NCBI GenBank assembly: GCA_018818405.1
Contig: JAHIRY010000041.1
Span: forward strand, 1 to 20,450
Length of the DNA stretch: 20,450 bases
Reading direction: 5' to 3'
DNA from: Patescibacteria group bacterium
Lineage (GTDB): Bacteria; Patescibacteriota; Patescibacteriia; UBA11705; JABHMO01
The notes below the pieces were generated by a model, which was not told the origin of the DNA, ran no database searches, and saw nothing but the letters and a program-made list of their open reading frames with translations. This document shows, piece after piece, positions 3,411 through 20,450 of this stretch; position 1 is the stretch's first letter, and every line of letters starts with the position of its first letter. The position numbers and the translations under genes are program-made.

Positions 3411-3477
3411 TAACATTCCGTGTAAAAATCGGAACTTGAATTTTGACAACAGAATTACGAAAAAAAGGAGGGGCAAA

Positions 3478-4245
3478 ATGGAAGATGCAGGAACAACAGC
3501 ATTGCTTTTGGCGGATTTCATTGCCTGGTATGGCATCGGATACAGCATTTCCCTTATTTTTGGAATAATGTTTACCGGGCTCGCCGGCATGGGAATCGGC
3601 GGGGAACATGACATTGACCACGATATTGACCACGATATTGACCACGACATTGATCACCATATCGGACATGACATTTCGCATGAGGCGGAGCATAACGCTC
3701 ATTCCGGAGACGGAGCGGGCGCTTCTCCTTTCAATCCGATCATGGCAGTTCTTTCTCTCGGGGGAATCGGGAAATACCCGCTCTCGATCGTTATGATGAT
3801 TTTTCTTTTCCTGTTTTTCGGCGCCGGAATTGTATCGATTTTCGGAATGAAATCATTTGGTTTGAATCTGACGGATTGCGGCTGGATTGCCTATGCGGCA
3901 AACTTTATCGCAACCTATTTTTCCACCGGATTAATTGCCGGATTGCTGCACAAATACATGCCATTGCACGAGAAAGAAACAACTTCAAAGGAATCTCTCC
4001 ATGGGAAAATCGCCAAGGCATTGTATTCTTTTGACAGTGAAAAGGGAATGGGATTTATTCATGTATACACGGATCGCAACGCGCTGATAGACGCACGCGC
4101 CCGAAACCTGGAACCGGATCAACCCATCAGGGCAAACCAGGATGTGATCATTGTCGCCTGGGACAAGGAGAATCAATGGTATGAAGTCGCGCCAATTTCA
4201 GAAGAAGATCAGCGACAGCTGGAACCGCGGGGTCAATCCCGCTAA
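3478..4245 (+). CDS. NfeD-like membrane protein (short NfeD/YuaF type) with an inserted His/Asp-rich repeat; partner of the downstream flotillin.
   Basis: RBS aggagg at 3463-3468, ATG at 3478. Two hydrophobic blocks are followed by a C-terminal beta-rich domain (GKIAKALYSFDSEKGMGFIHVYTDRNALIDARARNLEPDQPIRANQDVIIVAWDKENQWYEV) typical of the NfeD OB-fold. It lies immediately upstream of an SPFH/flotillin gene, the classic nfeD-floT/yqiK arrangement. Confidence 0.75.
   Translation: MEDAGTTALLLADFIAWYGIGYSISLIFGIMFTGLAGMGIGGEHDIDHDIDHDIDHDIDHHIGHDISHEAEHNAHSGDGAGASPFNPIMAVLSLGGIGKYPLSIVMMIFLFLFFGAGIVSIFGMKSFGLNLTDCGWIAYAANFIATYFSTGLIAGLLHKYMPLHEKETTSKESLHGKIAKALYSFDSEKGMGFIHVYTDRNALIDARARNLEPDQPIRANQDVIIVAWDKENQWYEVAPISEEDQRQLEPRGQSR
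3604..3675 (+). repeat. Six tandem 12-bp coding repeats (gaccacgatatt-like) encoding an (E/D/G)-H-(D/H)-I tetrapeptide repeat inside NfeD.
   Basis: Units fall at 3604, 3616, 3628, 3640, 3652 and 3664. The translation is EHDIDHDIDHDIDHDIDHHIGHDI, followed by SHEAEHNAHSGDG. Confidence 0.9.
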
Positions 4246-4261
4246 CAAGGAGGAGAATACC

Positions 4262-6241
4262 ATGGGATACATCATCTGGTTCACGGTCTCGATCTTGCTG
4301 ATTCTCGGACCGATCATCGCGCCGAGCGTCCTTCCCGGATTTGCCATGGATGGTTTTTCTCAGGTGCTATGCATCATCGCGGGGAGCGCCTCGCTGGTTT
4401 TCATGGCGTTTCTGGTGGTCGTCACCAGACTGTACCAGAAACCGACCCCAGACGAAGCGCTGGTCAGAAGCGGTCTGGGCGGACTTCAGGTTGCAATGGA
4501 AAAAGGAATCCTCTTCGTTCCCCTGCTACACACATTGTCGAGAGTCAGCCTAAGAACAATAAAAATTCCGGTAAAGAGAACCGGGACGGATGCTCTGATC
4601 ACGGCAGACTATCTTCGCGCAGACCTGCAAGCGGAATTTTACATTCGGATCACGGCCGACCAAAAGGAAATCATCAGCGCTTTCAGAACATTGGGGGTAA
4701 AAGCGACGGATGAAGCGGCGATCAAAGATCTCCTCCTGGACAAACTCGTCTCCGCGCTCCGGACAGTGGCAGCGAAATCCGATCTTTTCGACCTCAACAG
4801 CAATCGTGAAAAATTTGCCAGTGATGTAAAGGGCGCTGTCACAACAGACCTCTCTCAAAATGGATTCACGCTCGAAACAGTAACAATTTCCAATCTCGAC
4901 CAGGCAGACATCCGAGCTCTCAGGGAAAGTGAAAATGTTTTCAATGCGCGCGGAACGCAAAAAGCGGCGGAAATCATCCAGGACGCTCGGGTTCGTACAA
5001 ATGTTCTGGAAAGAGAAGCCAGCGAGGCAATCGAAGCGCAAAATGTTGCAACCAGGAAAAAAATTCTAGGGCTGGATCTGGAAAGAACACAAGCTGAAGC
5101 AAACCAGGCTCTTCAAGTTTCCATCGCCGAGGCTGAATCAAAGAAGAAAGCGGAAACTTTCCGCATTCAGCAAGAGCAAGATGTCGAGGCGAGAGAGATC
5201 GAGAAGTCACAGTTGCTGGCGCAGAGAGATCTCGAAAAACAACAAGCGATTGAAACTCGTGAAATCGAGCTGGCTCAAGCGGTGGAAACCGCAGATCAAG
5301 TAAAGAAAACGGCTGTCATTCAGGCGCAACAAGCGCAGGAAGTGGCAAACATCGAACGAGAGCAAGCATCTCTCGTTGCCACGGTCGCGAAGCAGAGAGC
5401 GGAAGAAGTGGCCAGAAGAGAACAGCAGATCGCGATCGCGCAGAAGGAAGGAGAACGCGCGGCAGCGGAAGCGATTCGGCTGATGGCGGAAAAAGACAGG
5501 GAAACCAATGCGCAGGCAGTTGCCACGGTGCAGGCGGTACAGACCGCGGAACGTGAAAAAGCACAATCAGTCCTGAAGGCTTCTGCCGCGGCGGAAACTG
5601 CCTATGTGACAGAGCAACGAAAGGCAGATGCCGAGGCATATCGCGCAAAGGCGATTGCCGAAGGAAAGATGGCGGCGGCTGAAGCTGACTTCGTGGCAAG
5701 AGTGAAGGCAGCGGAAGGCGAAAAAGCGGCAGCGGAAATGCGCGCGCTGGGTGCTCGGGCAGAACAGATTGTTCCCGTTGAAATCGAAAAGGAGCGGGTC
5801 GCGGTCGATCGCGGTCGGCAGATGATCGCCGTGGATGTCGCGAAACAGCAGGTCGAAGTCGAGGCGCGGCAAGTGGAGCTGGAAAGGCAGCGACTGCAAC
5901 AGCAAGATGAACATGGAAAGGTCGCAATCGATTTCGAAATCGCAAAGCTCGAAATCGAAAGGCGGGCGGACGTTCAGATCGCGACAGCGCAAGCAACCGC
6001 GCAGATGCTGTCCTCGGTGAAGATGACTCTCTTCGGCACGCCGGAAAACGCGGCTCAGATGCAGAGAGAATTTTTCACTGCCATGCGGCTCGCAAACGCG
6101 GGAGAAGGACTGCTTTCAGGACTGGACGGCGCTCCGCGCGTCAAAGAAGTGGTGACCAAAATGGGAGAAACCGCCGGCGCTCTGGCGGACATGGTTCTCA
6201 ACAAGCCTGCGGCAACGGAAACGACGGCGGAAAAAGAATAG
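4262..6241 (+). CDS. Flotillin-like SPFH/Band-7 family protein (FloT/YqiK type) with an extended Ala/Glu/Gln-rich coiled-coil region.
   Basis: RBS aaggaggag at 4247-4255, ATG at 4262, 16 nt after the NfeD stop. An N-terminal hairpin membrane anchor is followed by an SPFH-like segment (EALVRSGLGGLQVAMEKGILFVPLLHTLSRVSLRTIKIPVKRTGTDALITADYLRADLQAEFYIRI). About 350 aa of EA/EQ/AR-rich heptad repeats and a flotillin-type C-terminus follow. The coiled-coil DNA is locally GC-rich (~55%), which generates many spurious antisense ORFs in the track. Confidence 0.85.
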   Translation: MGYIIWFTVSILLILGPIIAPSVLPGFAMDGFSQVLCIIAGSASLVFMAFLVVVTRLYQKPTPDEALVRSGLGGLQVAMEKGILFVPLLHTLSRVSLRTIKIPVKRTGTDALITADYLRADLQAEFYIRITADQKEIISAFRTLGVKATDEAAIKDLLLDKLVSALRTVAAKSDLFDLNSNREKFASDVKGAVTTDLSQNGFTLETVTISNLDQADIRALRESENVFNARGTQKAAEIIQDARVRTNVLEREASEAIEAQNVATRKKILGLDLERTQAEANQALQVSIAEAESKKKAETFRIQQEQDVEAREIEKSQLLAQRDLEKQQAIETREIELAQAVETADQVKKTAVIQAQQAQEVANIEREQASLVATVAKQRAEEVARREQQIAIAQKEGERAAAEAIRLMAEKDRETNAQAVATVQAVQTAEREKAQSVLKASAAAETAYVTEQRKADAEAYRAKAIAEGKMAAAEADFVARVKAAEGEKAAAEMRALGARAEQIVPVEIEKERVAVDRGRQMIAVDVAKQQVEVEARQVELERQRLQQQDEHGKVAIDFEIAKLEIERRADVQIATAQATAQMLSSVKMTLFGTPENAAQMQREFFTAMRLANAGEGLLSGLDGAPRVKEVVTKMGETAGALADMVLNKPAATETTAEKE

Positions 6242-6454: not shown

Positions 6455-7174
6455 ATGACGGATTTTCTGGAAGAAATCGATCTGGTTCCGCTTTTGGATT
6501 TTTATGACGAGCTCGATATTCCGGTCATCTTTATCAATGACGGAAACAAAATGCTGATTCTCGAAAACATGGATGAAGTGGAAAATTTCTGCAGGGGATT
6601 GCCGGAAGAACTGCTCGAATACGCATTGGAGATACGGAAACTGGCGCATGATTATGAACTGATGCGTGATTTTGAAGAAATAATGGAGAATCTCATGAGG
6701 CTCGATTCCGCAGAGACCGTTGAAGCAACGATGAGCGTTTCATTGAAGTATGATGAAACAGGTCTTCATTCGCTTCCGCTCTGCCGTCTTTCACCTAAAG
6801 ACAAAACGATTTATTCTCCGCCGCCGCTGATTTCCTTGGATCAAGCTTGGACGATGTTTAAATTTTTGATCGAGGACGGCAAGATGGAGACAGCGGAATG
6901 CGTTTCGCTGTTGCAGGAAATGAAACAAATGGGGATACCTCTCGATCGAAAGGCAATCGATTCGCATCTGGCGCAACAGCCGCCGAGCGCATTGGAAAAT
7001 TTCGAAGAATTTAACCGCAGGGCAACCGCAGAGGCACTGGAGATCATTACAAAAGCAATCCGCCAGAACAATGGCTCGGAAAAACAGCTGACAACGACGG
7101 CTGTAAAAAATGAAACTCCGGATCTTGATTCAATTCCTGAAATCAATTCCCGTCCGCCGAACGGGATCAATTGA
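6455..7174 (+). CDS. Acidic hypothetical protein, paralog A; C-terminus IPEINSRPPNGIN.
   Basis: RBS aggagg at 6443-6448, ATG at 6455, TGA stop at 7172-7174. It is homologous over its whole length (~35-40% identity by eye) to the next gene. No recognisable domain. Confidence 0.8.
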   Translation: MTDFLEEIDLVPLLDFYDELDIPVIFINDGNKMLILENMDEVENFCRGLPEELLEYALEIRKLAHDYELMRDFEEIMENLMRLDSAETVEATMSVSLKYDETGLHSLPLCRLSPKDKTIYSPPPLISLDQAWTMFKFLIEDGKMETAECVSLLQEMKQMGIPLDRKAIDSHLAQQPPSALENFEEFNRRATAEALEIITKAIRQNNGSEKQLTTTAVKNETPDLDSIPEINSRPPNGIN

Positions 7175-7323: not shown

Positions 7324-8025
7324 ATGAAAAGCTTTCTGGATGAAATTCAGCAACTTCCGCTATTTGCACTCTATGATGAAATGAAACTCAATATTCTATA
7401 TATAGAGGGAAGTAATGGACTTCATATCCTCGAAGCCATGACCGAAGTTGAGGTCTTTTGCCAAAGAGTGGAAAAAGAAAACCCGGAAGTGGCGGAGGAA
7501 ATTAGGAGCCTTGCAGTTGCTCACCCTCTGCTGGCAAATTTTGAAGAAATTCTGGAACAAATACTGCAGATAGAGCTGCCTAAAAAAATTTGCGCCGGGA
7601 CTCGCGTTCTCAGGTACTCGGACGAGAGGGGACTTTATTCACTGCCGCTGGCCGTTCTCGCCTCCCCGAAAGATATAAGTCGTCACTCCCCTCCCATGAT
7701 TTGTCTGGAACAAGCATGGTTTGTTTTCAAAAATATGATTGCGGAAAAAATGTTGACGCCGATGGAATGCATCGCGCATATTCAATCCATGAAAAAAATG
7801 AATCTTCCGCTTGATCGCAAAGAGATTGACGCCTATCTGGCGCAACAACCGCCAATCGCCATGGAAAAATTCAAAAAATTTTTGAAACAACTTACAGCCG
7901 CCCGTGATGATGGTTTCCGCCATAAGATGGAAAAACAGGAAACTTTGCCGGCGCCGGAAAACAAACAACCGGACATTTCTCAAATTCCCGAAATCAATTC
8001 CCGTCAGCCGGACGGAATCAATTGA
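7324..8025 (+). CDS. Acidic hypothetical protein, paralog B; C-terminus IPEINSRQPDGIN.
   Basis: RBS gaggagga at 7311-7318, ATG at 7324, TGA stop. It shares conserved blocks with paralog A (FEEI, LHSLPL/LYSLPL, SPKD, LDQAW/LEQAW, PLDRK.ID..LAQQPP, IPEINSR.P.GIN). Confidence 0.8.
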   Translation: MKSFLDEIQQLPLFALYDEMKLNILYIEGSNGLHILEAMTEVEVFCQRVEKENPEVAEEIRSLAVAHPLLANFEEILEQILQIELPKKICAGTRVLRYSDERGLYSLPLAVLASPKDISRHSPPMICLEQAWFVFKNMIAEKMLTPMECIAHIQSMKKMNLPLDRKEIDAYLAQQPPIAMEKFKKFLKQLTAARDDGFRHKMEKQETLPAPENKQPDISQIPEINSRQPDGIN

Positions 8026-9423: not shown

Positions 9424-9617
9424 ATGACGATGAATGCTAAAATCAGCATAAGCGGGAATCAGGGCTCAGTCAGCAAGGAGCAAAGAGCACCATTCATATA
9501 ACATGTAGCGTGTAACACTTTTTGTAGAGGCGGGTTGCACCCGCCTAATCCGGTGAAAAATGCGAAATCCTTAATTTCGCAATAATAATCCGCCTGCCCC
9601 GCACGCTGCGGTGGTAA

Positions 9618-9653
9618 ATTCGTAACATTCGTAATATTTGTAAATTCGTAACC
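9618..9653 (+). repeat. Four phased 9-bp direct repeats (ATTCGTAAN) immediately upstream of the dnaA start.
   Basis: ATTCGTAA at 9618, 9627 and 9645, and ATTTGTAA at 9636, with exact 9-bp periodicity. The array ends 34 nt before the dnaA ATG. Confidence 0.85.
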
Positions 9654-11155: not shown

Positions 11156-11300
11156 TTTTCCACAGTTATCCACAATGTATCCACCTCCTTGCTGACAGAC
11201 TTATTCCACCAGCACTTTTTCTAAACTTAGCCCTTGAACGCACTTATCCACCAATATCCACAGCCTTATTATTATTATTAAATAAATATATATATAGTTA
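11156..11300 (+). promoter_or_regulatory. oriC core: DnaA-box cluster plus AT-rich DNA unwinding element (DUE) in the dnaA-dnaN intergenic region.
   Basis: Same-orientation boxes TTTTCCACA (11156-11164), TTATCCACA (perfect, 11166-11174), GTATCCACC (11177-11185), TTATCCACC (11244-11252) and ATATCCACA (11254-11262). These are followed by ttattattattattaaataaatatatatatag at 11265-11297, directly upstream of dnaN. Confidence 0.85.
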
Positions 11301-12780: not shown

Positions 12781-12812
12781 ATAAAAAAAACACGGAAGAA
12801 TTCCGCGTTTAA
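12781..12812 (-). terminator. Rho-independent terminator of the tRNA-Gly/tRNA-Leu transcript (minus strand).
   Basis: Minus-strand sense aaacgcggaattcttccgtgTTTTTTTT. Confidence 0.65.
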
Positions 12813-12903
12813 CAATTTCATCTTCGTATATTATGAATGGCTTGCCATGAAGTCACGCAAACTTCGCTTATCCGTGATTTTCAGTTTAAAAGCGTGTACT
12901 TCA

Positions 12904-12990
12904 TGGTGCCGCGGGCCGGAATCGAACCGGCACGGATTTGCATCCGCAGGATTTTAAGTCCTGTGTGTCTACCAGTTTCACCACCGCGGC
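12904..12990 (-). tRNA. tRNA-Leu (anticodon TAA).
   Basis: 87 nt. Acceptor gccgcgg/ccgcggc, anticodon arm cagga-cttaaaa-tcctg, 15-nt variable arm cggatgcaaatccgt, T-arm gccgg-ttcgatt-ccggc, encoded CCA. Confidence 0.92.
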
Positions 12991-13005
12991 TCGCGTTTTG
13001 AATTC

Positions 13006-13079
13006 TGGAGCGGGAGACGGGATTCCCTTCGATGCGACTCAGGGTCGGCTTCTCATCCTCTTTAAAATAAAACTTCTTT
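13006..13079 (-). repeat. tRNA-trailer insertion element: conserved ~54-nt core followed by a 20-nt direct copy of the tRNA-Gly 3' end (incl. CCA).
   Basis: 13006-13025 (tggagcgggagacgggattc) is identical to tRNA-Gly 3' end 13080-13099. The core 13026-13079 is homologous to the cores of the tRNA-Lys-associated repeats at 20121-20361. Confidence 0.8.
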
Positions 13080-13155
13080 TGGAGCGGGAGACGGGATTCG
13101 AACCCGCGACCTCAACCTTGGCAAGGTTGCGCTCTACCAACTAAGCTACTCCCGC
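13080..13155 (-). tRNA. tRNA-Gly (anticodon GCC).
   Basis: 76 nt. Acceptor gcgggag/ctcccgc, anticodon arm caacc-ttgccaa-ggttg, T-arm gcggg-ttcgaat-cccgt, encoded CCA. Confidence 0.92.
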
Positions 13156-13194
13156 AAATATTTGATAAAAGGTGTAAATATTGTATCAAAAAGT

Positions 13195-13225
13195 ATTATA
13201 TAGTCAATATTGAAAAAAGAAAAGA
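13195..13225 (-). promoter_or_regulatory. Candidate promoter for the tRNA-Gly/tRNA-Leu operon.
   Basis: Minus-strand TATAAT (rc of 13195-13200) lies ~40 nt upstream of the tRNA-Gly 5' end. TTGACT (rc of 13203-13208) is too close to be its -35, so the -35 element is unclear. Confidence 0.3.
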
Positions 13226-13331
13226 GCCCCATCTGAAATCAGACGAAGCCCCCTTTTTTTTCGTTTATGACGGCCGAGAATTAAGAATAAGATTAAGGAG
13301 AAGAATTAAGGAATGGAATCGCCGTTTTTAT

Positions 13332-13793
13332 TTATTGCAAACAATAATAGCCGATCGCGCCAAACGCGACGCTCACATTCAGGCTGTTTTTTTGTCCGAG
13401 CATGGGCAAGTGAATTATTTTGTCGCATTGTTTTTGAATTCCGGGCAAAATTCCGGTTTTCTCGTTGCCAAGAATTATCAACACTTTGTTTTTCGGTTTC
13501 CACCTTCTGTAATCAATGCTTTTCCGTTTGTTTAATTCCAATGCGATTATTTCATATCCGGCTCGTTTATATTCTTCAATTGTCGGTTTCAAGTTAAAAA
13601 TATGTTCCCAGTCAACTTTTTTTTCAGCTCCGAGCGCGGTTTTTCCCACTTTCGGTTGGTTTTTCGGAGTTGGAGAATATCCGGCGAGAAAAAGTTTTTC
13701 CGCGCCAATGGCGTCAGCGGTTCGAAAGATTGAGCCGATGTTGTAGGCGCTGCGGATTTTGTTGGCGACTACTATAATTTTTCTTTTTTTCAT
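13332..13793 (-). CDS. SpoU/TrmH-family (SPOUT) RNA 2'-O-methyltransferase.
   Basis: 153 aa: MKKRKIIVVANKIRSAYNIGSIFRTADAIGAEKLFLAG ... LILGNEKTGILPGIQKQCDKIIHLPMLGQKNSLNVSVAFGAIGY. The SPOUT motifs are present (N.GSIFRTA, LG.E..G, SLNVSVA). Confidence 0.85.
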   Translation of the reverse strand: MKKRKIIVVANKIRSAYNIGSIFRTADAIGAEKLFLAGYSPTPKNQPKVGKTALGAEKKVDWEHIFNLKPTIEEYKRAGYEIIALELNKRKSIDYRRWKPKNKVLIILGNEKTGILPGIQKQCDKIIHLPMLGQKNSLNVSVAFGAIGYYCLQ

Positions 13794-19427: not shown

Positions 19428-19523
19428 TTTCGGATAGTCGTTTACTAAGCTGGCGTTATAAAAGATTTACTTTTATAGAATTGTCGAATGGCCTGCCATC
19501 CGAAGCTCCCGCGGAGCGTAGGA

Positions 19524-19600
19524 TGGTGGACCCTAAGGGATTCGAACCCTTGACCTCTTCCATGCCATGGAAGCGCTCTAGCCAGCTGAGCTAAGGGCCC
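19524..19600 (-). tRNA. tRNA-Ala (anticodon GGC).
   Basis: 77 nt. G3:U70 wobble in the acceptor stem (gggccct/agggtcc), anticodon arm cttcc-atggcat-ggaag, T-arm aaggg-ttcgaat-ccctt, encoded CCA. Confidence 0.9.
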
Positions 19601-19702: not shown

Positions 19703-19945
19703 TTAAATCAGTCTTTTGTTCCGAAAAGCAATGCCTGATGATGTTTTCAAATATTTTTCAAAAGCAGATGCTTTCTTTTTGTCGGTGAAGGCACAATGGT
19801 AAAGTATTTTCCAAGGGCGGAACCTGTTTGTATGCGCAGACTTTCCTTTATTGTGTTCTTCCAATCGGTTATCAATGTTTTCTGAAAAGCCGGTATATAG
19901 TTGTTTAGGAGAATTGATGCTTTGGATGATGTAGACGAAATACAT
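19703..19945 (-). CDS. Small GIY-YIG nuclease-superfamily protein (UPF0213/YhbQ-like).
   Basis: MYFVYIIQSINSPKQLYTGFSENIDNRLEEHNKGKSAHTNRFRPW matches the GIY-YIG core (Y.VYI......LYTG.T.....R...H..G..A..T....PW). 80 aa. Confidence 0.8.
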   Translation of the reverse strand: MYFVYIIQSINSPKQLYTGFSENIDNRLEEHNKGKSAHTNRFRPWKILYHCAFTDKKKASAFEKYLKTSSGIAFRNKRLI

Positions 19946-20120
19946 TCTTTAATAACTTATTATTGGAAAATCGATACCCCTTTTTCTCTGCGCGAGTTTT
20001 TTTTAGTTTTGTTTGATGGCTTGCCATTCGTAGCGCAGCCATTTTAAAACAACTAAACAAGGAAAAATTTCAGCCCTTCTTCGCTGAAGCTACGAAGGGC
20101 ATTCTTCGCTGCGCGAAGAA

Positions 20121-20361
20121 TGGCGGGCGCAGAGGGACTCCCCTCGGCGCGGCTCGGTGCAGGCTTCTCGTCCCTCTTTTTCAATAAAATCTTTTGTGTT
20201 TGGTGGGCGCAGAGGGACTCCCCTCGGCGCGGCTCGGTGCAGGCTTCTCGTCCCTCTTTTTCAATGAAACATTTTTGTGTTTGGTGGGCGCAGAGGGACT
20301 CCCCTCGCGCGACTCAGGGCAGGCTTCTCGTCCCTCTTTTTCAATGAAACATTTTTGTGTT
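20121..20361 (-). repeat. Three tandem ~80-bp direct repeats, each a 20-nt copy of the tRNA-Lys 3' end (incl. CCA) plus a ~60-nt conserved core, abutting the tRNA-Lys gene.
   Basis: Units 20121-20200, 20201-20281 and 20282-20361 all begin tgg(t/c)gggcgcagagggactc, the reverse complement of the tRNA-Lys 3' terminal 20 nt. The unit nearest the tRNA is the best conserved. They generate the spurious + ORFs 20120..20347 and 20194..20403. Confidence 0.9.
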
Positions 20362-20437
20362 TGGTGGGCGCAGAGGGACTCGAACCCCCGGCCAAGTGCT
20401 TAAGAGGCACCTGCTCTACCGACTGAGCTATGCGCCC
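20362..20437 (-). tRNA. tRNA-Lys (anticodon CTT).
   Basis: 76 nt. Acceptor gggcgca/tgcgccc, D-arm gctc-agtcggta-gagc, anticodon arm ggtgc-ctcttaa-gcact, T-arm ggggg-ttcgagt-ccctc, encoded CCA. Confidence 0.92.
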
Positions 20438-20450
20438 GTATTAGATTATA

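Follow-up and report, generated by a model that had tools for sequence, protein, structure and literature searches.

The 20,450-nt contig JAHIRY010000041.1 from a Patescibacteria group bacterium (assembly GCA_018818405.1), analyzed in its entirety and called the window below, carries three tandem 80-81-nt units behind tRNA-Lys(CTT) and one 74-nt unit behind tRNA-Gly(GCC). We conclude with good confidence that these units are RtT-like tRNA-linked repeats (TLRs) in a minimal form of ~60 nt, whose RNA is probably co-transcribed and processed with the tRNA. TLRs of E. coli have been known since 1978 (Egan and Landy 1978; Rudd 1999; reviewed in PMC8144298). In strain K-12, 22 of them are distributed over 10 loci, with one to five per locus, and the 3' end of each is identical over 18-19 bp to the upstream tRNA or rRNA gene (PMC8144298). 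No function has been demonstrated for these repeats in E. coli; their recognition by the processing of the upstream RNA has been proposed, and an early stringent-response claim for RtT has been retracted (PMC8144298).

In both locations, the unit starts at the first base after the CCA of the tRNA and lies on the same strand (Table 1). The calls were made in tRNA sense on the minus strand, where a Lys unit consists of an A-rich spacer of 24 nt, followed by AGAGGGAC, GAGAAGCCTG, a short hairpin and the last 20 nt of tRNA-Lys including CCA. Tandem Repeats Finder (TRF) describes the Lys array at 20121-20381 with a period of 80, 3.2 copies and 95% matches. The terminal segment of the Lys units is GAGTCCCTCTGCGCCCACCA, which corresponds to the final 20 nt of tRNA-Lys, and that of the Gly unit is GAATCCCGTCTCCCGCTCCA, which corresponds to the final 20 nt of tRNA-Gly. 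The Gly unit and the first two Lys units are identical to the 3' end of their host tRNA over 20 of 20 nt, and Lys unit 3 is identical over 19 of 20 nt; in this third unit, the sole change in the tRNA copy is from A to G at the discriminator (..CCCGCCA). Successive copies of the tRNA 3' end are separated by 54-61 nt of non-copy sequence. The other tRNAs in the window, tRNA-Ala and tRNA-Leu, have no downstream copy of their own 3' ends.

Table 1. Positions of the units, their parts and neighboring features in the window.
Feature	Position	Strand	Basis
tRNA-Lys(CTT), host gene of array, CCA encoded	20362-20437	minus	ARAGORN; Rfam tRNA 73.1 bits
Lys unit 1, 80 nt	20282-20361	minus	TRF; R1 73.5 bits; R2 59 bits; Rfam RtT 22.6 bits
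Lys unit 1, A-rich spacer	20338-20361	minus	
Lys unit 1, P1 5' arm AGAGGGAC	20330-20337	minus	
Lys unit 1, single strand GAGAAGCCTG	20320-20329	minus	
Lys unit 1, P2 hairpin CCCTGAG/CGAGGGG, tandem G.A pairs	20301-20319	minus	
Lys unit 1, P1 3' arm GTCCCTCT	20292-20299	minus	
Lys unit 1, free tail GCGCCCACCA	20282-20291	minus	
Lys unit 2, 81 nt, layout as unit 1, P2 differs (CCGAG/CGAGG)	20201-20281	minus	R1 76.6 bits; R2 62.1 bits; Rfam RtT 23.9 bits
Lys unit 3, 80 nt, terminal copy, spacer diverged	20121-20200	minus	R1 72.3 bits; R2 56.9 bits; Rfam RtT 22 bits
End of Lys operon: hairpin starting at A of last CCA (20101-20121), then terminator-like hairpin and U-run (20059-20088)	20059-20121	minus	sequence; terminator scan
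Stand-alone 80-aa GIY-YIG gene, between Lys array and tRNA-Ala	19703-19945	minus	Pfam E 2e-17
tRNA-Ala(GGC)	19524-19600	minus	ARAGORN; Rfam
Promoter-like site TTGACT-16-TACAAT with TG, upstream of tRNA-Gly	13180-13207	minus	consensus scan only
tRNA-Gly(GCC), host gene of single unit	13080-13155	minus	ARAGORN; Rfam 73.7 bits
Gly unit, 74 nt, layout as Lys units	13006-13079	minus	R1 64.1 bits; R2 47.1 bits, E 1e-10
Gly unit, spacer	13062-13079	minus	
Gly unit, P1 5' arm AGAGGAT	13055-13061	minus	
Gly unit, GAGAAGCCGA	13045-13054	minus	
Gly unit, P2 CCCTGAG/CGAAGGG	13025-13044	minus	
Gly unit, copy of tRNA-Gly 3' end	13006-13025	minus	
tRNA-Leu(TAA), starts 15 nt downstream of Gly unit, no own unit	12904-12990	minus	ARAGORN

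A pattern describing the core has four matches in the window and none in 100 shuffles. Moreover, a covariance model whose six source units come from unrelated genomes and include nothing from the window (R2) gives 57-62 bits (E 1e-13 to 1e-14) for the Lys units; for the Gly unit it gives 47 bits (E 1e-10). These results confirm that the units are real elements rather than chance matches. A previous reading of this DNA from its sequence alone (the sequence-only reading) had described the three tandem units of core plus 20-nt tRNA-Lys end, and the repeat finder, coordinates and tRNA calls agree with that description. It had also described a homologous unit at 13006-13079 that ends in the Gly 3' end, which likewise holds, and its concern that the Gly copy might be a chance match on formal alignment is answered by the R2 score. 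The same reading was correct that a constant core is joined to the 3' end of whichever tRNA it neighbors, but not that this arrangement is unexpected, given that it is a hallmark of E. coli TLRs (PMC8144298). The class is thus a known one, defined by a constant core with a host-specific 3' end.

An alignment of 12 units (A1, 76 columns) contains two helices. In P1, the purine-rich 5' arm (AGAGGGAY) is paired with the copy of the T-stem 3' strand and of the acceptor nucleotides that come first after it, and P2 pairs CCCUGAG with CGAAGGG through tandem G.A pairs that are usually present. Both helices are also predicted independently by RNAalifold. The fraction of paired cells in A1 is 79%, compared with 69.6% in shuffles, and the covariation score is 0.399, compared with 0.227; neither value is reached by any of 500 shuffles, and slid controls on A1 are 38-55% paired. 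In three of the comparison loci (comparison loci and contigs are labeled with L-numbers), the tandem G.A pairs of P2 are replaced by Watson-Crick pairs (L021, L033 and L059). Among 14 units, E. coli Tyr and Arg included, the contiguous helix formed by the 5' arm with its own tRNA copy has a mean length of 7.1 bp, versus 3.9 bp with the copies of other units (permutation p < 5e-5). The single strand GAGAAGCC(U)G that joins P1 and P2 is nearly invariant from E. coli to Patescibacteria, and the acceptor strand, discriminator and CCA, which constitute the 3' tail, are unpaired in the P1 plus P2 fold. Compensatory changes had been named by the sequence-only reading as a check on the core, and in the alignment of the units covariation is present in both P1 and P2. 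On this comparative basis, the predicted fold is shown to be conserved.

Two other structural interpretations were rejected. The minimum-energy fold of the Lys units is an acceptor/T-arm minihelix, which is not conserved in the Gly, Leu and Pro units and is no more stable than shuffles. The hammerhead-like segments CUGAG...CGAA raised the idea of a ribozyme, for which no Rfam ribozyme family gave a match up to E = 10 in positions 19950-20450; these segments are better read as tandem sheared G.A pairs within P2. As a separate observation, the P2 hairpin sequence CCCUGAGCGAAGUCGAAGGG occurs alone in longer perfect hairpins of unrelated plasmids (E 0.02-0.7), as in Pseudanabaena NZ_CP112876.1 at 181690-181709 (L057) and Sphingomonas NZ_CP155750.1 at 312437-312464 (L056). 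These lone hairpins may reflect chance or a free-standing tandem-G.A hairpin motif.

Searches of Rfam at gathering thresholds return tRNAs only, and the units do not reach the RtT threshold of 45 bits. With permissive thresholds, the RtT model (RF00391, from the E. coli tyrT repeats) aligns along its whole length with all three Lys units at 22.0-23.9 bits (E 0.012-0.067). The Lys units have the same outer helix in this alignment, with a 5' arm that pairs with the copied tRNA segment, and they have in common with RtT both GGAUGAGAA directly after the outer-helix 5' arm and the ...CCA tail. An outer helix followed by GAUGAGAA is a feature of RtT that is present in the Lys units in the cmscan alignment, and the helix is backed by covariation. 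A total of 77-79 inner model positions are deleted, and the short hairpin P2 stands in place of the multi-stem domain. In the reverse direction, a covariance model that draws on 12 mini-units and includes nothing from E. coli (R1) finds three of the four RtT units of the E. coli tyrT locus at 27.3-27.6 bits (E ~5e-5 in 345 kb and ~7e-7 in 4.8 kb), compared with scores of at most 19.5 bits for loci of chance hits. The initial impression that the core belongs to no known RNA family is therefore not borne out, given the sub-threshold match to RF00391 and the significant reciprocal match of R1. Because the curated Rfam threshold was failed, the proper name for the units is RtT-like, not RtT.

The E. 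coli K-12 tyrT locus is organized as tyrT, one RtT unit, tyrV and three RtT units. An RttR RNA of 171 nt is annotated at this locus, and the final 19 nt of tRNA-Tyr recur at the end of each of its units. The units at argV, argZ and argQ have the tRNA-Arg 3' end at their termini and a matching 5' arm, GGGAGGAU. The units described here resemble the E. coli TLRs in that they immediately follow a tRNA gene, on its strand and within its operon, and in that they occur in one to several tandem copies, as do E. coli TLRs (one to five per locus). Over 18-20 nt, their 3' ends are identical to the end of the gene ahead of them, irrespective of the tRNA that it encodes, and their 5' arms are complementary to the copied tRNA end, as at tyrT and argV/Z/Q. 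TLRs are also recognized by sequence common to repeats behind different tRNAs and to the E. coli repeats, which is evident here from the R2, R1 and Rfam RtT scores. The two groups differ in size, because the units here comprise ~60 nt of structured RNA plus a ~20-nt spacer whereas those of E. coli span ~130-180 nt. The host is a Patescibacterium close to Candidatus Falkowbacteria rather than an enterobacterium, and the units are known here from DNA alone. Finally, a copy behind an rRNA gene is seen among E. coli TLRs but not here.

Compared with RtT RNA itself (RF00391; rttR, tyrT operon), the units share the motif GGAUGAGAAGC directly after the outer-helix 5' arm, the outer helix, the CGAAGGG segment, the ...CCA tail and a tandem G.A motif, as reported in RtT (PMC7657543), and the models match in both directions. 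However, the scores of 22-24 bits compare with a threshold of 45 bits, and the inner multi-stem domain is missing. Furthermore, the AUG that starts the annotated E. coli tpr peptide is ACG in the Lys units. Because of this change, a conserved tpr-like peptide was rejected, and the sole open reading frame (ORF) of a unit encodes Met-Phe-His-stop.

Other trailer RNAs of E. coli offer further comparisons. RrA, RrB and RrF are TLRs behind 5S rRNA (PMC8144298) that, like the units here, repeat the 3' end of the upstream RNA at their own end; they are co-transcribed trailers released by processing, as is probable for the units here. They differ in that these three 5S-linked TLRs bind Hfq and CsrA in vitro by way of several GGA motifs and are placed between two terminators (PMC8144298). 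The 19 tRNA-linked E. coli TLRs are predicted not to bind CsrA (PMC8144298). The small RNA 3'ETS-leuZ and other small RNAs from tRNA trailers are functional RNAs excised from the 3' external spacer of a tRNA precursor (PMC8144298). However, 3'ETS-leuZ is a base-pairing sponge that is not repeated and has neither a copy of the tRNA 3' end nor a core shared across tRNAs.

The distribution of the units was surveyed with exact patterns only, in one scan that covered GTDB species representatives and a second that covered JGI metagenomes. Of the matches, 19 of 25 in genomes and nine of 17 in metagenomes arose by chance in coding sequence, and these were used as negative controls. True units are present in three Candidatus Peribacteria genomes (L017, L018 and L023), in Flavobacteriaceae and Saprospiraceae (L007, L021 and L025; the tRNA was not identified in the fetched Bacteroidota DNA) and on eight metagenome contigs. 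Wherever a tRNA is present in the fetched DNA, the unit is directly behind it and ends in that tRNA's own 3' end. Additional hosts in this DNA are Ser(CGA), Leu(TAG), Leu(CAG), Pro(CGG), Met(CAT) and Arg(TCG). Thus, the core, which had been seen beside two tRNA genes in the window, also occurs in other genomes behind Arg, Lys, Gly, Ser, Leu, Pro and Met tRNAs, as the sequence-only reading had proposed to check. Overall, eleven tRNA species were counted as hosts of the core. At 12 control loci with chance pattern matches, the tRNAs have no downstream copy of their own 3' ends. Several contigs end within arrays, as would be expected for repeats. As far as the searchable literature shows, TLRs have been described for enterobacteria only, and their occurrence in Patescibacteria, Peribacteria and Bacteroidota is new. 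What is new is thus the minimal form and these phyla, and the type of element is already known.

Some units found in this survey have distinct features. Those of Bacteroidota (L007 at 5572-5751 and L029 at 12800-13250, both minus strand) have a copy that lacks CCA, and because a terminator hairpin follows each unit, they may be separate transcription units. The L029 units also carry an extra hairpin within the tRNA-derived part. Among viral contigs, all three pattern matches are in coding sequence (Asp-Glu-Lys-Pro codons) with no tRNA nearby and were rejected. A BLAST search with a 46-nt consensus against phages and plasmids gave only marginal partial matches (E 0.02-0.8) in coding or unrelated intergenic DNA.

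Closely related DNA reveals variation in copy number. The contig L001, from another assembly, is 99.93% identical to the window and reaches past the window end, where tRNA-Arg(TCG) is located upstream of tRNA-Lys and is followed by its own unit, with the same core and a terminal copy of the Arg 3' end (19 nt). L001 has one Lys unit versus three in the window, and L042 has at least two Arg units versus one in L001. From these counts, either strains differ in the number of units or the array has been collapsed in some assemblies. The identity of 99.93% between the window and L001 holds over 7.3 kb up to the CCA of tRNA-Leu(TAA), beyond which the two are unrelated (window 12904; L001 17042). Past this CCA, the window contains dnaN and dnaA, and L001 contains different sequence until the contig ends ~700 nt further on. 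This change is either a synteny break or an assembly chimera, located exactly at a tRNA 3' end.

More distant relatives indicate that units come and go. The window carries rnpA, dnaA, dnaN, ruvB and further housekeeping genes, and its DnaA is 73-78% identical to proteins of uncultured relatives, some of which are labeled Candidatus Falkowbacteria. The syntenic dnaA-dnaN-tRNA region was compared in six relatives with 74-78% DnaA identity. A unit occupies the Gly-Leu spacer only in the window and L001 and in L048 and L049, and L050, L052, L058, L059 and L060 have short unit-less Gly-Leu spacers with an ordinary trailer hairpin. In this comparison, units behind tRNA-Arg and tRNA-Lys occur in the window lineage only, and tRNA-Ser(CGA) is followed by two units in L059 and none in L048. 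Sites without a unit, which the sequence-only reading had suggested seeking, are thus found at syntenic loci (the Gly-Leu spacer and Ser). In the orthologous Gly unit of L048, the copy is GAGCCCCG...TTTCCCGCTCCA, like L048 tRNA-Gly, and is split by a 30-nt hairpin. Relative to the window, the tRNA copy of this unit changes from AAUCC to AGCCC and the 5' arm from GGAU to GGGC, in step with the tRNA. Gain and loss of units thus take place within a short time, and units that are in place co-evolve with the tRNA, which requires gene conversion or selection for identity and pairing.

L048 also contains two related arrangements. Behind tRNA-Leu(TAA), at 13350-13516 (minus), the 5' half of a T arm is followed by an insert of ~45 nt and an acceptor 3' strand with CCA. 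Behind tRNA-Ala, at 20713-20763 (minus), there is a reduced unit composed of AGAGGTC, a 7-bp hairpin and CCGGGTCCACCA, without GAGAAGCC.

The positions of the units suggest that they are transcribed with their tRNAs. Consensus and terminator scans found no promoter or terminator separating a tRNA from its units, and none of either kind between tRNA-Gly, its unit and tRNA-Leu. Because tRNA-Leu starts only 15 nt downstream, the Gly unit appears to sit within a Gly-Leu transcript. A-rich unstructured spacers follow every CCA.

A second recurrent design is apparent in tRNA trailers, in which the 5' arm of a hairpin opens with the tRNA's own CCA and the 3' arm closes in UGG. The design continues with CAAG or CAGG and then another CCA (ATGGCARGCCAT). 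It is found in the window at 12837-12848, 19488-19499 and 20016-20027 (all minus; three matches versus 0.25 expected) and in L039 at 2808-2819, as well as in tRNA trailers of L048, L050, L052, L058 and L059. It occurs behind tRNAs that have no unit and also behind the last Lys unit. This design may serve in processing, as a signal by which CCA is sequestered.

By analogy with E. coli, the units are most likely co-transcribed trailer RNAs that would be released by tRNA-type 3' processing. The sequence-only reading had included a CCA-ended trailer module among its alternatives, and this option is supported by the two covarying helices, by the location of the units inside tRNA operons and by the lack of an intervening promoter or terminator in the scans described above. 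A unit would be transcribed within the tRNA precursor, as its position implies, and would fold into P1 and P2 joined by the single strand GAGAAGCC(U)G, as covariation indicates. The remainder of the copied tRNA end (acceptor 3' strand, discriminator and CCA) would be left as a free tail identical to that of the tRNA. If processing resembles that of E. coli RtT and RrB, the tRNA 3'-end machinery would cut the A-rich spacer after each CCA and trim to the CCA, which would yield the tRNA and one CCA-ended RNA of ~60-80 nt per unit. Arrays presumably lengthen and shrink through unequal recombination between direct repeats, a mechanism suggested by the observed pattern. New tRNAs would occasionally be colonized, after which the 5' arm and 3' copy would co-evolve with the host tRNA. 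Microhomology between the 3' end of the core and the T-loop (GAGTCC/AATCC) may serve in this spread, given that T-loop position 57/58 is invariably where the identity block begins. Our best guess is that the released RNA imitates the tRNA 3' end and so acts as a mimic or decoy toward a factor that binds this end.

Several observations weigh against the interpretation of these units as RtT-like TLRs that act as RNAs. The Rfam RtT score is far under the 45-bit gathering threshold, and the inner RtT domain of ~70 nt is absent. The reciprocal score derives partly from tRNA-derived sequence, and because the independent common motif is only about 9-13 nt, there is a small chance that the resemblance to RtT is due to convergence. 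Folding energies of single sequences are no better than those of shuffles (z -0.6 to +0.7), so the structural support is comparative, and P1 has only four contiguous pairs in the Gly, Met and L023 units. Transcription of the units, their cleavage sites and their stability in this organism are presumed, and the functional part is a guess because TLRs have no demonstrated function even in E. coli.

Four alternative explanations were weighed against this interpretation. If the three-copy Lys array were an assembly artefact, it would be consistent with the single Lys unit in the 99.93%-identical contig L001 and with metagenome contigs L028, L031, L039 and L042, which break inside such arrays. However, point changes and one indel distinguish the three Lys units, which therefore do not represent an assembler's perfect repeat; assemblers collapse repeats and do not invent diverged copies. 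Tandem units are independently present in L031, L042, L059, L023 and E. coli, and the L001 unit is a hybrid of units 2 and 3, which fits a real unequal crossover or a collapse in L001 but not an expansion in the window. Because the Lys units differ, we judge artefactual expansion of the window array very unlikely, and collapse in L001 possible. Decay of tandem tRNA gene duplicates into pseudo-tRNAs would account for the last 20 nt being identical to the tRNA and for UCGAAGGG ahead of the copy, which is faintly T-arm-like. However, the units lack a D arm and an anticodon arm and are unmatched by ARAGORN and the Rfam tRNA model, and one non-tRNA core is found behind Lys, Gly, Arg, Ser, Leu, Pro and Met tRNAs. 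Judged by this common core, pseudo-tRNAs can be considered excluded, with a probability close to nil.

The two remaining alternatives invoke mobile DNA. The units could be miniature non-autonomous elements that insert at tRNA 3' ends and duplicate a target of ~20 bp, in which case the RNA structure would be incidental. The sequence-only reading had raised this option, and it is supported only indirectly, by the patchy occupancy of the Gly-Leu, Arg, Lys and Ser(CGA) sites among relatives (74-78% DnaA identity) and by the location of the unit between the tRNA CCA and the trailer hairpin typical of unit-less tRNAs, which is the geometry of insertion with target duplication. Nevertheless, neither the window nor L001 nor any of the syntenic loci contains a transposase or integrase. 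Miniature inverted-repeat elements and derivatives of insertion sequences are bounded by terminal inverted repeats, duplicate a short target of fixed length and have a cognate transposase, and these hallmarks were not found for the units; the only inverted repeat at the termini is P1, in which the element pairs with its own duplicated target. We know of no transposase that fits a target duplication of 19-20 bp. In addition, the 5' arm is tuned to each tRNA and co-evolves with it at orthologous loci, which would need selection after arrival on the folded strand and argues for selection on an RNA. The same class also resides stably in E. coli tRNA and rRNA operons (PMC8144298). On balance, we consider the mobile-element explanation unlikely. 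The units could instead be att-site scars left by since-deleted elements whose tyrosine integrases used the tRNA T-loop. The att sites of T-loop-targeting integrases extend from the T-loop to the tRNA 3' end, and in every case here the identity block runs from T-loop position 57/58 to the 3' end. However, an element body is absent, and no integrase domain is present among the genes of the window, L001 and the syntenic loci. Identical boundaries and the same core are found behind at least nine different tRNAs in several phyla, and a unit is located 15 nt from the next tRNA, inside an operon. Tandem arrays with an 80-nt period and covariation in P1 and P2 would also not be expected of scars, and we regard this origin as highly improbable.

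A broader proposal is that the ~60-nt core (P1, GAGAAGCC, tandem-G.A P2 and a free CCA tail identical to that of the tRNA) represents the ancestral pan-bacterial functional unit of all TLRs, kept or exchanged among Patescibacteria, Bacteroidota and Proteobacteria for a specific role at tRNA 3' ends. We regard this proposal as speculative and unlikely. One possibility under it is that the core titrates a conserved factor that reads the acceptor end, and another is that the core copies itself behind new tRNAs via template switching at the T-loop. If the latter were true, the units would constitute a new kind of self-propagating element at the RNA level or the replication level.

More than 45 years after TLRs became known, they are still without a function (PMC8144298). 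The stripped-down TLR of Patescibacteria, Peribacteria and Bacteroidota keeps the same single-stranded motif and two covarying helices. The conserved motif, the covarying helices and the host-tuned 5' arm argue for selection as RNA and against the view that the repeats are junk. A minimal consensus that spans phyla provides a basis for the design of experiments and makes the 1978 puzzle easier to attack. In practical terms, such arrays break metagenome assemblies, and the units can be mistaken for att sites, pseudo-tRNAs or scars of mobile elements.

Other features of the window were also noted. The GIY-YIG gene, which the sequence-only reading had placed between the Lys array and tRNA-Ala and whose identity is confirmed by Pfam, follows tRNA-Ala in L048, lies elsewhere in L059 and is not found in this region of L050. 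A link between this gene and the units was rejected because its position in relatives is uncorrelated with units and it moves independently. Neighboring paralogous ORFs of 239 and 233 amino acids without a Pfam match are located at 6455-7174 and 7324-8025 (plus strand) and have long motifs in common, such as LPLDRK.ID..LAQQPP and IPEINSR.P.GIN. A membrane-protein ORF at 3436-4245 (plus strand) contains a His/Asp repeat, (HDID)n, encoded by a 12-nt tandem repeat at 3613-3675. This ORF is upstream of a flotillin/Band_7-like gene, and the syntenic gene in L052 has a weak match to YqiJ_N. Tandem repeats also flank dnaA, with 4.5 copies of GTAAATTC just upstream at 9614-9651 and 2.5 copies of TCCACAATGTA in the dnaA-dnaN interval at 11159-11184. 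Because the TCCACAATGTA repeat resembles a DnaA box, these repeats are probably elements of the origin region.

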